Below are positions 4,714 to 30,449 of a DNA stretch of 35,910 bases, piece after piece (position 1 is the first letter of the stretch; each line of letters begins with the position of its first letter). Made by a program: the position numbers and the translations under genes. The DNA lies in contig JAUXFK010000003.1 in NCBI GenBank assembly GCA_030623035.1, positions 1 through 35,910 of the forward strand, given 5' to 3'. Below the pieces are notes generated by a model. It was not told the DNA's origin, did not search any database, and was given only the letters and a program-made list of their open reading frames with translations. The stretch comes from Deltaproteobacteria bacterium. GTDB lineage: Bacteria > Desulfobacterota > UBA8473.

Positions 4714-4988
4714 GTAACAGTTTAGCTTTTTTAAATGTTATTTGCTTCAATGGTGGTCAAATTTTAACGCGTGCAACTGTTTGAACATCTTAGTGAGCGT
4801 TAAGAAAGAACAGGGGAAAAGCCTCGTTTTTCTAGGATGTTAATCGTTCCAAAGCTTATCGGCTGAATTTAATAGCTGAATGCTGTTCTTTCTTTATGCT
4901 CTTTTAGATGCGAGTTCTGCACGGGTTAAAATTTGATTGCCGTTGAAGCTTGGCCAGTGCTTTCTGTTTCATAAGGCTAAAATAATAC
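4714..4988 (+). mobile_element. MITE-like palindromic element, family A2
   Basis: Ends gtaacagtttagc / gctaaaataatac. Flanks gtataaac / atataaac (7/8 duplication). Near-identical to 13672-13899; core homologous to A1. Confidence 0.85.
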
Positions 4989-13671: not shown

Positions 13672-13943
13672 GTAACAGTTTAGCTTTTTTAAATTTTAGT
13701 TGCTTCAACGGTGGTCAAATTTTAACGCGTGCAACTGTTTGAACATCTTAGTGAGCGTTAAAAAAAACAGGGGGAAAGCCTTGTTGTTCTAGGATGTTAA
13801 TCATTCCAAAGCTTATCGGCTGAATTTAATAGCTGAATGCTGTTCTTTCTTTATGCTCTCTTAGATGCGAGTTCTGCACGGGTTAAAATTTGATTGCCGC
13901 TTTAGTGACCGATTTTTTTTGCTGAGGGAACTCAATAGCCATT
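13672..13943 (+). mobile_element. Chimeric A2/A1 palindromic element
   Basis: 13672-13899 matches the A2 copy at 4714. The right end gtgaccgattttttttgctgagggaactcaatagccatt is an A1 end. No target duplication. Confidence 0.85.
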
Positions 13944-16764: not shown

Positions 16765-16843
16765 GTATTATTTTAGCCTTATGAAACAGAAAGCACTGGC
16801 CAAGCTTCAACTGCAATCAAATTTTAAAAAGCTAAACTGTTAC
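16765..16843 (-). mobile_element. Internally deleted A2 element (ends only)
   Basis: Reverse complement of about 4927-4988 joined to the reverse complement of about 4714-4732. Confidence 0.88.
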
Positions 16844-22051: not shown

Positions 22052-22203
22052 GTAACTGTTTAGCCGGATAGTGATTTGTATGGTCTTTGACGAGCATTTT
22101 TGAGTTATTTTGTTAAAGATTCAAATGCCTTCCTTGACCTTGAACAAAATTGCTCATTTCTGGATAGACACTCGTTAGCCCTTTAAAATGGCTAAACAAT
22201 TAC
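22052..22203. mobile_element. Family E MITE containing a family D end
   Basis: TIRs gtaactgtttagcc / ggctaaacaattac. Perfect 8-bp duplication aaaacatc at 22044-22051 and 22204-22211. 22127-22172 is the reverse complement of the D left arm. Confidence 0.85.
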
Positions 22204-25782: not shown

Positions 25783-25801
25783 ACCGCTTTAAACTTAAAT
25801 A

Positions 25802-25943
25802 GTGTCCATCCAGAAATGAGCGATTTTGTTCAAGGTCAAGGAAGGCGAAGCTTTTAACCACAGGAATATATTGAGATATTTCGAGGATTAAAATCTGAGC
25901 CTGACACAGAGATTGGGCAAAAGGGCCATTTATGGATGGACAC
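25802..25943. mobile_element. Family D MITE, full length
   Basis: TIRs gtgtccatccagaaatg / catttatggatggacac. Perfect 6-bp duplication taaata at 25796-25801 and 25944-25949. Confidence 0.88.
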
Positions 25944-26413
25944 TAAATATTTGCCCGTTCATCTATGAGATCGTGTTCTTTTGTATCTTGAAGTAAACTC
26001 TTTAACTCTTCTATATTTAAACTCCCCATAGTCTCTATATAAAAATTTCCGCTCCAAAGCTTTTTTATCCTGTACTTCTTCTGTATCTCCCTATGCCTAT
26101 TTAAGATTGAAAATGATGTCCTTTCTATTATATCCTTAACAATGCCGGGTATGTAATGGGTGGGTTTGGCACATAAAATCAGATGGGCATGGTCTGGATG
26201 AAGAACCAGCCCAAATAACTCGTATCCCTTATAAAGAGTAATTTCTTTAAAGATTATTTCCAGTTCTGTTGCTGTTTTACTGGTAATTATAGGCTGTTTC
26301 TTGGGTGTAAAGAGTATCAGATGATAACTGATCCTATATGCAAGGTCTGAATATCTATTATAATTTGTTTCCTTAAGGGGTTTGAAATAGGAGCAAAGGA
26401 TAATATGGGGCAT
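25943..26413 (-). CDS. IS200/IS605 TnpA (Y1 HUH)-like protein, catalytic Tyr absent
   Basis: YHLILFTPK, PDHAHL (HUH) and LWSGNFYIETMG are present, but the YIxxQ helix reads LKSLLQDT. Confidence 0.8.
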   Translation of the reverse strand: MPHIILCSYFKPLKETNYNRYSDLAYRISYHLILFTPKKQPIITSKTATELEIIFKEITLYKGYELFGLVLHPDHAHLILCAKPTHYIPGIVKDIIERTSFSILNRHREIQKKYRIKKLWSGNFYIETMGSLNIEELKSLLQDTKEHDLIDERANI

Positions 26414-26469
26414 ATTTTTTTGTGAAATTTTAAATCCCTCTTTTTAAACTGACCTTTAAGTATGATTGA

Positions 26470-27519
26470 TCAGGGAAAGAGGGGCAGGTTCTTTATCCCT
26501 GAGTCCTCAGGGAATCCATACATAATGTTCATATCTTGAATTGCTTGCCCTGAAGCGCCTTTAACCAGATTGTCTATTGCAGATATTACGACTATCCTTT
26601 TTGTCCTTGGATCGAATCGCATTCCTATATCACAGAAATTGCTCCCTTTAACCAAAGAGATATTGGGAAGACTGTCTTCAGGGTGTATTCTTACAAATCT
26701 CTCTTTACTATAGAAATCGGTGTAAATCCCTATTAACTCTGATGTTGAAATGTCTTGAAGGGAGTTTGAATATATAGTGGTCAGTATACCTCTATTTACG
26801 GGTATTAAATGTGGAGTAAAAGAGATGATGACATTTTTATGGGCAAGCAGGCTTAACTCTTGCTCTATCTCAGGTGTATGCCTGTGTTCTCCTATCTTAT
26901 AAGCATTAAGCCCTTCATTAACCTCACAGAAAAGATATTCCGTTGCCACTGTTCGACCGGCCCCAGAGACACCTGATTTGGAGTCCACAACTATATTTTT
27001 TATGTCTATTAAATTGTTCTTCAGTAAAGGGGCGAGTCCGAGTATCGCACTGGTTGGGTAACAACCCGGATTGGCAATAAGTTTCGCCTTTTTTATTTTA
27101 TCCCTGTGCAACTCAGGAAGGCCATAGACAGACTCCTTTAAAAGGTCTGGGGAGGTGTGGCTGCTATACCATTTTTCATAGACCTCAGGATTATTAAAGC
27201 GAAAATCCGCACTGAGGTCTACGACCTTTTTACCCCTCTTCATCAACTCGGGAACGATATTCATTGCTACCTTATGCGGTAAAGCACAGATTATGAAATC
27301 AGAGAGATTACAGATATGATCTGGCGATGGGCTTGTAAATTTAAGGTTTATTTCTGAAGCAAAGGCAGGAAAGACTTCCGACACCTTCATTCCATCAAAC
27401 TTTCTTGATGTCAATGCGGTTATCTTTGCATCCGGATGTCTAAGCATAAGTCTGATCAGTTCTTGACCTGTATACCCACTTGCACCAATTATTGCAACTT
27501 TTAGCATCTTTTTTCTCAC
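26470..27519 (-). CDS. argC: N-acetyl-gamma-glutamyl-phosphate reductase
   Basis: [23 protein letters not shown] and [11 protein letters not shown] motifs. Confidence 0.98.
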
Positions 27520-27525
27520 TGATCT

Positions 27526-27602
27526 CCACAGAAATGCCCCTTTTGCCCAATCTCTTCACTTTCTTTGATCTGAAACAGGATTACTCATTTCTGGATGGAC
27601 AC
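27526..27602 (-). mobile_element. Internally deleted, degenerate family D element
   Basis: aaatgccccttttgcccaatctct ... ctcatttctggatggacac match both ends of D in reverse orientation. Confidence 0.8.
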
Positions 27603-27614
27603 ATAATAATAAAT

Positions 27615-27870
27615 AATGGCTATTGAGTTAACTCAGCAAAGGCGGTCACATTATAACGCGTGCAACTGTTTGAGCAGTGTAGTGAGCGTTAAGAAAGAAC
27701 AGGAGATTGTTTCTTGGTTGTGAGTCGTAACATATTTATTTGTGACTGTCTAATTCAAATGATCAATACTGTTCTTTCTTTATGCTCACTAAATCGCGAG
27801 TTTTGCACGGGTTATAATGTGATTGCCTTTGCTGTGACCGATTTTTTGAAAAGAGAAGTCAATAACCATT
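27615..27870 (+). mobile_element. MITE-like palindromic element, family A1
   Basis: TIRs aatggctattga / tcaataaccatt. Flanks taataaat / taataaaa. Long internal inverted repeat. Confidence 0.88.
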
Positions 27871-27874
27871 TAAT

Positions 27875-27902
27875 AAAAAAAAGGCCAAAGAGGCCTTCTT
27901 TT
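27875..27902 (-). terminator. Intrinsic terminator of rplM-rpsI
   Basis: aaggcc/ggcctt hairpin followed by U8 on the minus strand. Confidence 0.7.
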
Positions 27903-27917
27903 AGATATATAGAAGTT

Positions 27918-28310
27918 TTACCTCTTGGAGTATTGAAATCTTGCCCTTGCCCCTTTTTGTCCGTATTTCTTTCGTTCTTTGATTCTTGAATCCCTGGTTA
28001 TAAACCCAGCCTTCTTTAAAATCGGTCTAAAATTGTCGTTTACCTCTAATAGTGCCTTTGTTATACCGTGTTTTATCGCTCCAGCCTGACCGGATGTGCC
28101 TCCACCTCGGACAGTCGCAAACACGTCGTAATTCTCAGATGTGGCAGTTAATCCAAACGGTTGCCTGATTACCATCTTTAAGGTTTCACGTTTGAAATAT
28201 TCATCGATGGATTGGTTGTTAATCTTAAATTTACCACTGCCGGGTTTTAACCATACCCTCGCTATGGATGACTTTCTCTTTCCTGTTGCATAAAAACTCT
28301 CTTCTGCCAT
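27918..28310 (-). CDS. rpsI: 30S ribosomal protein S9
   Basis: [17 protein letters not shown] and C-terminal [16 protein letters not shown]. Start MAEES follows ggagg. Confidence 0.98.
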
Positions 28311-28376
28311 TAAAAACTCCTCCATTTTCAAACAAAATAGATCACTGGAGAGGGGATAAAGGGGTCATTGTCCTTA

Positions 28377-28805
28377 TTAAATATCCAGGATTTCAGGATT
28401 TTGAGCCTCGTGTGGATGTTCATCTCCAGCATATATCTTTAATTTTGTAATCATTTTTCTGCCAAGTCTGTTTTTGGGTAACATGCCTTTTACAGCCAGC
28501 CTTATAAGCTCCCTGGGGTCTTTTTGCTGTAACTTCTCTGCAACAATCGATTTGAGACCTCCAGGATAACCACTATGGTGATAATAAACCTTCTGTTGTA
28601 GCTTTTTCCCTGTTAGAATAATCTTCTTTGCATTTATAATAACTATAAAATCTCCTGTATCTACATGGGGTGTATAGATAGGTTTATGCTTCCCCCTCAG
28701 TATTATAGCACTCTTGCTGGCCAGCCTTCCAAGGGCTTCCCCCTTTGCGTCTATTAAATACCACTTTCTTTCAAATTCACCCGCTTTGGCACTGAAAGTC
28801 TTCAT
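28377..28805 (-). CDS. rplM: 50S ribosomal protein L13
   Basis: [24 protein letters not shown] and HPHEAQ motifs. True start MKTF at 28805. Confidence 0.98.
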
Positions 28806-28845
28806 TGTCTTCTCCAAACTCCGCTCGTTGTTTATAAACTTTGAT

Positions 28846-28874
28846 ATATTAGTGGTTTTCTTTTTTTTTGTCAA
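28846..28874 (-). promoter_or_regulatory. sigma70 promoter of rplM (TTGACA-17-TAATAT)
   Basis: Perfect -35 with a 17-bp spacer on the minus strand. Confidence 0.7.
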
Positions 28875-28982
28875 GCAAAATGTGGGCTTGCATAGGGGTG
28901 CTTCAAAATAAACTGTACCATTTTTCAGATTGCAGTAGGATTCCTTATAAGCAGTTGCAAGGTATGATTTTACAACCCTTTT

Positions 28983-29003
28983 TGAGTTAACCCAATAGCC
29001 ATT
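28983..29003. repeat. Solo A1-type terminal repeat
   Basis: tgagttaacccaatagccatt is the reverse complement of the A1 end at 27615 with 1 mismatch. Confidence 0.7.
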
Positions 29004-29021
29004 CACAACTTATGAACTCAT

Positions 29022-30449
29022 TTAGAGGAGAAACTCAGCAGACTGAATTCCGTAGGCCGAGGGATGAATGCTTTTTTTAATATTTCGTAGATATGAGCCT
29101 TTTTGAGTATCCAATTCTTCCAGACTGACAGTCTTTCCTTTTCTAAAACGGCCTTGATCATCAGACAACAATAAAACGACCCGAGGTCGAGCTTTATCGC
29201 TATCTTCAGGGGATTCGATTACTAGACCCAATTCATCTGTGTCCAGTTTCAAAAGTGTTCCCACCGGATAGATCCCTAACATATTGATAAATAATTTTAG
29301 CAGGATTGGATCATAATCTTCCCCTATCTTTTCAAGCATAGTTTCAAGAGCACGGTCTGGGCTAAATGGAGCAGGTCGATATACCCGAGCAGATGTAAGG
29401 GCGTCGAAGACATCTGCTATGGTTATGATTCTTCCGAACAGGCTTTGGCTTTTCTTTCTATTCAGCCGAGGATAACCTGAAAGATTGAATTTCAGATGAT
29501 GCTCGAAAGGAGGAAGAAAGCTTTCGACCTTAAAGTCATTTGAAGCATTTAATTGGATGATATATTTCACGCTTCTCAAAGGGTGTTTCTCTATCTCCTC
29601 AAACTCTTCATCGCTCAATCGACCGGGCTTATTAAGGATATCCAGGGGTATGTCCAACTTTCCCAAATCGTGAAGAAGCCCACAGATGCCGAGTTTTCTT
29701 AAAGACATTTTCGATAGCCCAATTTGTTTCCCAAGACACAGGGAGAGTAACGCAACATTGACCGAGTGGGTATATGTGTAGTCATGATAATCCCGAATCG
29801 TGCTTAAACTGAGGAGTATGGGCTTATCCTCGGTATGCATGTCCATCATATCTTGAATAATCCGTTTTATCTTCCGAACTCCCACCTTTTTTTGTGAGCC
29901 TAATTTATCGGTCAATTCTTTTAACGAGGTCAAGGCATTAAAGTAACCTTTTAGGGCCAATTCCTTTCGTTCGAGATCGTGTTCCTGAAGGTCTGTCTCT
30001 TCTCCCTTCTCGATCTGTATCCATGAAAACTCCTTCCTCTTACTGAGTTGCATTACGAGCCAATCTATGGGATCCTCTTGACCTTCAGCTTTGTTTAGGA
30101 TGCGTATAAAACTCAGGATATTATCATAAGAGGCATCCTTGATGGCTGCAAAGAAGCGAAGCCCTCGAAGCTTTCGATTTTTGAAGTAATCGAGCATCTC
30201 TTGGACGAGACTTAAGTTATCACGTCGGTAGGGAAGCTTCTCTTCCTCCAGGTAGAACCTATCACGGGACATAGAAATCATCAAAGATCTCTCGTGCACC
30301 CACCAAGGAGCCAGGACTTCGTTGAACTCTTTCGCACAGTCTAAAAGTAACTGATTGTTATCCTGGTGGATCTTGACGGACTGAACGAGCCTATACAGGA
30401 GTCTAAGAAAATTCTCTCCTAAAAGGGTTTTTTGTTTTTCTAAATCCAT
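29022..30449 (-). CDS. HD-GYP domain protein (cyclic dinucleotide phosphodiesterase-like)
   Basis: YTYTHSVNV, LHDLGK, EHH..SGYP and ADVFDALTSARVYR motifs. Confidence 0.9.
   Translation of the reverse strand: MDLEKQKTLLGENFLRLLYRLVQSVKIHQDNNQLLLDCAKEFNEVLAPWWVHERSLMISMSRDRFYLEEEKLPYRRDNLSLVQEMLDYFKNRKLRGLRFFAAIKDASYDNILSFIRILNKAEGQEDPIDWLVMQLSKRKEFSWIQIEKGEETDLQEHDLERKELALKGYFNALTSLKELTDKLGSQKKVGVRKIKRIIQDMMDMHTEDKPILLSLSTIRDYHDYTYTHSVNVALLSLCLGKQIGLSKMSLRKLGICGLLHDLGKLDIPLDILNKPGRLSDEEFEEIEKHPLRSVKYIIQLNASNDFKVESFLPPFEHHLKFNLSGYPRLNRKKSQSLFGRIITIADVFDALTSARVYRPAPFSPDRALETMLEKIGEDYDPILLKLFINMLGIYPVGTLLKLDTDELGLVIESPEDSDKARPRVVLLLSDDQGRFRKGKTVSLEELDTQKGSYLRNIKKSIHPSAYGIQSAEFLL

Follow-up and report, generated by a model that had tools for sequence, protein, structure and literature searches.

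An IS1595-type MITE family with a covarying, strand-asymmetric hairpin in a deltaproteobacterium of sulfate-reducer type

We found that the 256-nt sequence at positions 27615–27870 of the analysed DNA is a copy of a non-autonomous DDE-type element, an IS1595-type MITE, and that it represents a new family of an ordinary kind, here called family A. The window, i.e., the whole stretch of DNA that was analysed, comprises 35,910 nt from a Deltaproteobacteria bacterium and carries several copies of the family. The element folds end to end into a long hairpin whose paired positions covary and which tolerates G·U pairs on one strand much more than on the other. The best explanation of these observations as a whole, which we consider on balance probable, is an IS1595-type MITE whose one-strand fold is selected during propagation, with folded single-stranded DNA as the favoured form of the selected molecule.

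Ends, target sites and mobility

The ends of the element are exact at 27615 (AATGG...) and 27870 (...CCATT), which are the boundaries given in the original prediction, and the length of 256 nt leaves no room for a transposase gene. The copy is located between argC (26470–27519, − strand) and rpsI (27918–28331, − strand), with the rpsI terminator (27881–27897) adjoining it, and a 91-aa ORF (27714–27989) extends beyond it. Its terminal inverted repeats (TIRs) are about 23 nt long: the left one (27615–27636, + strand, AATGGCTATTGAGTTAACTCAG) pairs in the fold with the right one (27848–27870, + strand), which ends in ...AGTCAATAACCATT and is an imperfect complement of AATGGCTATTGAGTTAACTCAG. Target site duplications were found immediately outside, at 27607–27614 (TAATAAAT) and 27871–27878 (TAATAAAA), and agree at 7 of 8 positions. 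Target duplications were also scored in elements with both ends fitting strict end patterns, by comparing the 8 nt outside each end. At least 7 of 8 positions matched in 76 of 100 elements (27 of 36 long copies, 26 of 34 short copies and 23 of 30 elements of at most 100 nt), and in 0 of 100 when the right window was shifted by 10 nt.

Family A has two types of ends. A1 ends have the sequence AATGGYTATTGAGTT, and the same 23–30 nt end a gene at three loci (L005, L012 and L018) of a distant genome, G040, where the final transposase codons extend into the A1-type inverted repeat. The product of this gene (ORF at L018) matches PF12762 (IS1595 DDE, 84.8 bits) and PF12760 (zinc ribbon, 60.9 bits). 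The left TIR sequence of the 27615 copy is found both at these three loci and at L031 of G001, a congener of the bacterium studied here, where a shortened transposase remnant has an A1-type end. The usual target duplication of the IS1595 family is 8 bp. Thus A1 copies share the terminal 23 nt and 8-bp target duplications with IS1595-family insertion sequences (ISs), whereas the interior of family A is unrelated to theirs and lacks a transposase. A2 copies, with GTAACAGTTTAGC on one side and GTATYATTTTAGC on the other, have ends that differ from the IS1595-like A1 ends, and derivation from IS1595 was found for A1 ends only.

No parent IS for the A2 ends was detected among the orphan end motifs of the genome from which the window derives (G000); these motifs were core-less derivatives, other small elements or chance in-gene matches (e.g., C63:2560). 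A matching transposase was not found in the same genome either: PF12762 gave 0 matches in G000, which at 85% completeness of the assembly does not demonstrate absence, and 3 matches in G001, all with internal stops. A separate 59-nt micro-element with GTAACAGTTTAGC at both ends was also observed in G000 (e.g., C110:1516–1574, C154:1422–1480 and C163:4342–4400). Most of the 17 small elements (56–92 nt) with GTAACAGTTTAGC at both ends were 59 nt long with perfect 8-bp target duplications, and a longer relative of this micro-element (GTAACAGTTTAGCCAAATAATGATTTGGATGG...) adjoins several family A copies. One transposase seems to serve several MITE families.

TIRs (also present on other copies), target duplications, small size, multiple copies and both filled and empty sites characterize family A as a MITE, which is moved in trans by a transposase that recognizes the TIRs and makes 8-bp target duplications. 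The original prediction had set selection on the fold against a passive MITE filler; this contrast fails, since TIRs, 8-bp target duplications and empty sites make the element a MITE itself. MITEs are common, and family A is an ordinary one as regards ends, target duplications and insertion between genes; the one-strand preference of its hairpin is the unusual feature.

Three other copies with a core occur in the window. The second A1-type copy (1894–2153, − strand) lies upstream of gyrB and has ATACAATA flanking both sides. An A2-type copy (4714–4988, + strand; ends GTAACAGTTTAGC and GCTAAAATAATAC) is located between gyrB and gyrA with the target duplication GTATAAAC/ATATAAAC. The copy at 13672–13943 (+ strand) is a hybrid: its left end and core are of the A2 type and its right end (…GACCGATTTTTTTTTGCTGAGGGAACTCAATAGCCATT) is of the A1 type. 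Its flanks differ (AAATATGT vs TAATGTAA), and it was probably made by recombination of two copies. More A1/A2 chimeras occur elsewhere in G000. The hybrid nature of the 13.7 kb copy had escaped the original prediction, which gave the orientation of all four copies to their flanking genes correctly (sense at 4.7 and 13.7 kb, antisense at 1.9 and 27.6 kb). In addition, a 79-nt core-less derivative at 16765–16843 has both A2 ends and 17 nt of one arm, with 3 of 8 flanking positions matching.

Empty sites were seen for two of the window copies. In G001 the gyrB–gyrA site is empty: the gyrB and gyrA matches abut, and the junction GTATAGAC is present once, where G000 has GTATAAAC, the element and ATATAAAC between genes that are 88% identical in DNA to those of G001. 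An 11.4-kb contig from a public run of unrecorded kind (X1), at ~92% identity, skips 27513–27875 and has 11 other letters instead. The element has been active since the split of the two congeneric species. Core-less derivatives were mobile as well. The 13 such derivatives of G000 (62–80 nt), from which nearly all of the core is gone, have both A2 ends, 17 nt of one arm and one common deletion junction, and 12 of the 13 have target duplications of at least 7 of 8. The common junction together with these target duplications indicates that they spread after the core was lost and, because they transposed, that the fold is dispensable for mobility.

The genome G000 is a draft of 2.57 Mb in 268 contigs (85% complete) of a bacterium of sulfate-reducer type. 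BLAST with two window copies yielded 228 merged loci, 43 of them touching contig ends, with a total of 32,768 nt or 1.27% of the bases. An alignment of 112 whole elements with flanks by MAFFT was too gappy, and an arm HMM was used instead; this one-arm profile detected 337 arms. They form 134 convergent pairs, and most of the 69 arms left single lie at contig ends. We estimate about 200 copies of family A in G000. Such a number (~1.3% of bases) helps to account for the hundreds of contigs in assemblies of this genome and its relatives. Elements range from 56 to 321 nt. The element inserts only between genes: 0 of 99 ORF-flanked elements in G000 lay inside an ORF. With 22 further elements at contig edges left unclassed and ORF calls being crude, the 99 comprised 70 between co-directional, 17 between divergent and 12 between convergent ORFs, against 1607, 206 and 255 in the genome background.

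A query with the A1 copy had matches in 7 of 41 genomes searched. Whole elements or cores were found in G000, in G001 (same genus) and in G002 and G005 (same family); G018, G019 and G040 matched the terminal 25–35 nt only, and no matches were found in seven genomes of genus g4. A pattern scan with one genome per species revealed arms, among the matches listed, in MAGs labelled Desulfobacterales, Desulfobacteraceae, Desulfobacteria, Deltaproteobacteria and Thermodesulfobacteriota. Paired arms came from at least 14 labels, the genomes named above counted in, and pattern matches in other phyla, also among the matches listed, contained no arms and were chance 17-mer matches.

Several other repeats were observed in the window. 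An IS200-type Y1 transposase gene (25943–26413, within 25790–26413, − strand; NF033573, 74 bits) is followed by a palindromic unit of ~150 nt, GTGTCCATCCA...TGGATGGACAC, pieces of which are also found at 22130–22171 and 27520–27602, the latter abutting the A1 copy on its left. This unit is a second repeat family with no relation to family A; the X1 contig, which lacks the A1 copy, lacks the 27520–27602 fragment as well. Two pairs of direct repeats, 15878–15928/18496–18546 (51 nt, 96% identity) and 16080–16225/18539–18684 (146 nt, 95% identity), are ~2.5 kb apart, lie upstream of ORFs, contain reiterated AAAGTGCCTAAAGT-like words and are unrelated to family A. Elsewhere in G000, at L036 (C229, 147–587 and 617–778), an intact IS200-type gene (145 bits) with small flanking hairpins of its own adjoins a truncated short copy of family A, next to or into which it seems to have been inserted.

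Architecture and covariation of the core

The whole 256 nt of the 27615–27870 copy folds end to end, and the ~250-nt hairpin of the original prediction is real: the RNA fold of the + strand has −106 kcal/mol, against −58.1±4.6 in 200 shuffles (z −10.4; 0 of 200 as good). The + strand folds more strongly than the − strand with both RNA (−106 vs −88.9 kcal/mol) and DNA (−57.9 vs −48.5) parameters. The conserved core begins with the L arm (27637–27702, + strand; delimited by the register of the arm HMM and the 45-row alignment described below), which contains stem P1, the G of a G·G mismatch, the bulged ACTGTTTGAG, stem P2 and stem P3 (GTGAGCGTTAAGAAAGAACAG). The variable apex (27703–27766, + strand) follows, and then the R arm (27767–27831, + strand), which is complementary to L except where G·T, G·G and T·T are conserved and in its internal loop, which is shorter (GAGTTTT). 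A right-side-only extra segment (27832–27847, + strand, TGTGACCGATTTTTTG) includes a second GTGACC, a possible pairing partner for GGTCAC in the L arm, with a T run after it. The apex had been predicted to differ completely between A1 and A2 copies. It is indeed much more divergent, with identity in 28 of 68 aligned columns compared with 58 of 66 and 53 of 63 (84–88%) in the arms, but this was overstated, as a small AATT.AA patch is common to both.

Arms were compared in one register, L against the reverse complement of R, and 128 of the 134 pairs in G000 were oriented by means of the asymmetric internal loop, the remaining 6 being set aside. The outermost stem, P1, has ~28 pairs. It contains the G·G mismatch in 95 of 126 G000 copies with letters at that position, and this mismatch is kept in G001, in G002 and in lineages whose neighboring pairs have changed. 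Two or three G·T wobbles lie near the base of P1, two of them present in 89 and 92 of 121 copies. As had been proposed, these imperfections are common to both subfamilies, and they also occur in other genomes. Inside P1 is the asymmetric internal loop, with ACTGTYTGAG as its 5′ and GAGTTYT as its 3′ strand, followed by P2 (5–6 pairs), a T·T and P3. In P3, GTGAGCGTTAAGAAAGAACAG lies opposite CTGTTCTTTCTTTAYGCTCAC; the stem is almost invariant in every genome, with T·T in 70 of 70 long copies and a single position that is G·T or G-C (31 and 33 copies). A protein may recognize the invariant P3 together with the G·G, U·U and bulge positions that are conserved. Long copies have a core of ~195 nt. 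Short copies have lost the apex along with the inner half of the R arm, leaving a core of ~112 nt.

The same core is found within IS1595-like A1 ends and the different A2 ends, in both orientations and in several genera; relative to A2 ends, long copies were oriented a,b in 13 cases, b,a in 8 and a,a in 3. We conclude that the interior is a long imperfect palindrome older than its present ends. Three G001 copies (L025 2737–2932, L097 253–448 and L085 253–448) have the L-type loop on both arms with the T·T of P3 kept, which directly attests to partial conversion between the arms or to inversion within the element.

Covariation was analyzed in a 45-row alignment of distinct long cores, 4 from the window and 41 from G000, G001, G002, G005 and named MAGs. 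Cores with a divergent outer P1 were left out; 11 cores could not be oriented by the motif rule, 7 of which were oriented by the arm profile, and 5 of these were used, the other 2 being dropped because their arm strings duplicated existing rows. RNAalifold returned 47 pairs, and standard pairs occupied 96.4% of 2111 cells, against 86.6±0.4% in shuffles. Both sides had changed in 23 of the 47 pairs, compared with 14.7±1.8 in shuffles (0 of 500 as high) and 4–10 when partners were slid by 1–3 columns, and the covariation score was 0.333, compared with 0.145 in shuffles and at most 0.063 for slid partners; these controls are somewhat flattering, since the structure came from the same alignment and its rows are kin, but the margin is still large. 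The double-sided changes were mostly in P1 (17 of 25 pairs), and P3 hardly varied. The claim of compensatory changes was therefore borne out by significant covariation over several genomes. It had been based on the pairing of tcacattataa with ttataatgtga in A1 and of tcaaattttaa with ttaaaatttga in A2, which is correct, and the corresponding column states vary on both sides within G000: among 128 oriented copies, arm column 12 was A/A in 85 and C/C in 27, and arm column 16 was T/T in 82 and A/A in 32.

Strand asymmetry of the hairpin

Non-Watson-Crick cells of the 45-row alignment were strongly asymmetric, with 155 G·U on the + strand and 31 A·C, i.e., G·U on the − strand. The consensus fold energy was −45.5 for the + strand and −30.7 for the − strand, and the + strand was more stable in 44 of 45 rows from several genomes. 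It was also more stable in all 67 long and all 54 short G000 copies, for which mean energies of the + and − strands were −82.2 vs −65.5 (long) and −39.6 vs −29.8 (short). Because a static wobble excess is largely inherited, we counted events on a tree, using FastTree on 107 distinct long copies and Fitch parsimony per pair in 48 columns with a Watson-Crick majority. Changes to G·U numbered 87 on the + strand and 44 on the − strand (p 2e-4); this and the other event counts and p-values are approximate, as copies are kin, the tree was built from the scored columns and chimeric copies are present. The asymmetry was found on internal branches (22 vs 6) and at tips, both in G000 (34 vs 18) and in other genomes (31 vs 20). 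Columns favoring the + strand outnumbered those favoring the − strand by 25 to 9 (p 0.009), with a bootstrap share over columns of 0.57–0.75. The signal is weaker for any single stem, with counts of 38:23 in P1 (p 0.07), 20:4 in P2 and 29:17 in P3 (p 0.10). In contrast, unpaired and mismatch columns were balanced (24 C>T plus A>G, 30 G>A plus T>C), and stems differed from them with a Fisher p of 0.008.

Rare variants provided an independent but cruder count. In Watson-Crick consensus pairs of four G000 subfamilies, variants present in at most 2 copies were distributed 41 vs 23 (p 0.033), and singletons alone 29 vs 17 (p 0.10), while unpaired positions gave 17 vs 20. A count over all MFE-paired positions (66 vs 83) was set aside, because it includes wobble-restoring changes and unconserved apex stems. 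Both covariation above controls and a strand-specific pairing bias, the two features of a structured single-strand element, were thus found.

With moderate confidence, the strand asymmetry exceeds inherited wobbles. In lineages that spread, the hairpin stays pairable on one strand, namely that with ACTGTYTGAG in its 5′ arm, and changes giving G·U or G·T on this favored strand were kept about twice as often as mirror changes, or about 4:1 on internal branches; we regard both statements as being of moderate strength. Among long copies between co-directional genes, the favored strand was sense in 18 and antisense in 18, and hairpin stability did not differ between sense and antisense copies (long, −81.0 vs −84.6; short, −40.9 vs −41.0). 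From the equal stability and the stronger ratio on internal branches, we take selection to act while the element propagates, not on copies already in place. Selection on the fold of one specific strand, as the original prediction had it, therefore has moderate support from the 87 vs 44 changes and the balanced control, which together allow for descent and mutation bias; it is qualified by a fold that is dispensable for mobility and by the even orientation of long copies to genes. For short copies between co-directional genes, we observed an antisense excess of the favored strand (9 sense, 25 antisense; 25/34, p 0.009), which counts against the propagation model, as that model leaves the excess unaccounted for.

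Competing explanations and known systems

An unlikely, but not negligible, alternative is a passive MITE, whose palindrome would be a by-product of how it arose and of conversion between arms or recombination between copies. The founder would already have had the G·T, G·G and T·T positions, and the G·U excess would be an artefact of kinship, chimeras and small numbers. Conversion and recombination are real, given the G001 copies with two L arms, the A1/A2 chimeras including the hybrid at 13672–13943, and flipped cores. Moreover, 56 double changes from Watson-Crick to Watson-Crick fell on one branch, private doubles were compensatory in 6 cases and non-compensatory in 1, the singleton asymmetry alone is not significant and core-less forms are mobile. 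However, conversion should remove mismatches, and the G·G, both T·T and the asymmetric loop have been kept across genera beside changing P1 pairs. Conversion and descent are also strand-neutral and do not predict the excess of events and of columns on one strand together with a balanced control. Arm-to-arm conversion, which might have explained away the compensatory changes, occurs in this family but accounts for neither the fixed mismatches nor the strand bias.

A second alternative places selection at the level of the host: the co-transcribed + strand hairpin would act as RNA, either as a cis terminator, a 3′ stabilizer, a target of double-strand RNase or a small RNA. G·U tolerance and covariation suit RNA, all copies are intergenic, A1 copies have a T run 3′ of the hairpin on the favored strand (27841–27846 in the 27615–27870 copy, ~9 nt past the base of the main stem), and ERIC, Correia and bcr1 elements offer precedents in the parts of the literature consulted (PMC3184786, PMC3049150). 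We nevertheless consider this possibility quite unlikely. Long copies are evenly divided between sense and antisense and short ones are mostly antisense, stability is the same in both, and internal branches show a stronger asymmetry than tips. Scans of two copies for promoters and terminators found nothing inside the elements above shuffled expectation; no intrinsic terminator was detected within 27615–27870 by a scan that recovered the rpsI terminator. Rfam 15 gave 0 matches over the window at gathering score, and a permissive search returned only sub-threshold models of long-hairpin miRNA precursors (best 33 bits vs 211). No RNA source was listed for 26400–29100, and in three cold-seep metatranscriptome runs searched at 80% likeness a single 60-nt contig matched, on 27665–27700, which weighs neither for nor against an RNA. 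Finally, it is very improbable that family A is a single-strand transposon like REPIN/RAYT or IS200/IS605 elements and relies on a resident Y1 transposase to move: strand-specific hairpins are a hallmark of such elements, 8 PF01797 matches occur in the genome (one of them in the window) and an IS200-type gene adjoins the short copy on C229, but Y1 elements make neither TIRs nor 8-bp target duplications, the window Y1 gene is flanked by a different repeat, and both Y1 proteins score as IS200 (74 and 145 bits) and below the cut-off for REP-associated transposases (26 vs 80 bits), so that family A does not belong to REPIN/RAYT.

Among documented systems, the closest analogue is the Chunjie MITE of Geobacter uraniireducens Rf4 (Chen et al. 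2008, as summarized in PMC3184786), compared here by that description only. It is an AT-rich, recently active element of 178–235 bp with ~21-bp TIRs, 9-bp direct repeats and many copies, and it forms a very stable hairpin of about −98 to −130 kcal/mol as RNA. Its direct repeats are 9 bp as opposed to 8 bp in family A, and the description in PMC3184786, as far as consulted, mentions neither a core common to different ends nor a one-strand bias. The bcr1 repeats of the Bacillus cereus group, for which the consulted part of PMC3184786 reports compensatory base changes in RNA, and ERIC and Correia elements, for which that of PMC3049150 reports orientation-dependent RNA effects, are, like family A, interspersed intergenic palindromic repeats. 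Unlike family A, they are ~100–160 bp long, have other target duplications and have been shown experimentally to be transcribed; family A is longer, is known from DNA alone and shows random orientation of long copies. REPINs are mobile hairpins with compensatory change (PMC3116915); in the portion of that source consulted they lack both TIRs and target duplications and are linked to a Y1 transposase that is present in single copy between REPs. Family A shows neither feature. A literature search, within sources other than subscription journals, retrieved no description of family A or of a G·U strand test on MITEs. Papers on IS1595-linked MITEs, judged by title and start of abstract, did not describe such a family, and nothing was found on MITEs of sulfate-reducing bacteria or Desulfobacter.

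If, as we favor, the one-strand fold of this IS1595-type MITE is selected during propagation, the selected molecule may be a folded single DNA strand, for example when the element is single-stranded at the replication fork. In such a strand, P1 would zip the two distant ends together for the transposase. End-zipping would explain why P1 covaries freely, why short forms keep P1 and P2 and not P3, and why the 62–80 nt derivatives need no core, their ends being already adjacent. Against this reading, no DDE transposase is known to use one folded strand. A more specific reading, which we offer tentatively and regard as rather unlikely, is that the core works as a structured, strand-specific module carried by DDE MITEs whose ends are interchangeable, and that it is recognized as folded single-stranded DNA, by a transposase or a host protein, or acts in cis as RNA. 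Its parts would be the covarying P1, the fixed G·G, two fixed U·U, the conserved 5′-side bulge (ACUGUYUGAG) and the invariant P3. If such a module is true in either form, success of the element would depend on it and not on the ends alone; if it acts as single-stranded DNA, IS1595-type transposition would include a single-strand step.

The large number of copies makes it possible to read single-strand selection cleanly with a mirror-image test, in which changes to G·U are compared with changes to A·C and unpaired columns serve as a control for mutation. For family A, its outcome suggests a filter on the fold of one strand that acts on a DDE-type MITE as it spreads. Confirmation at the bench would point to an unrecognized single-stranded step or cofactor in the mobilization of such elements.
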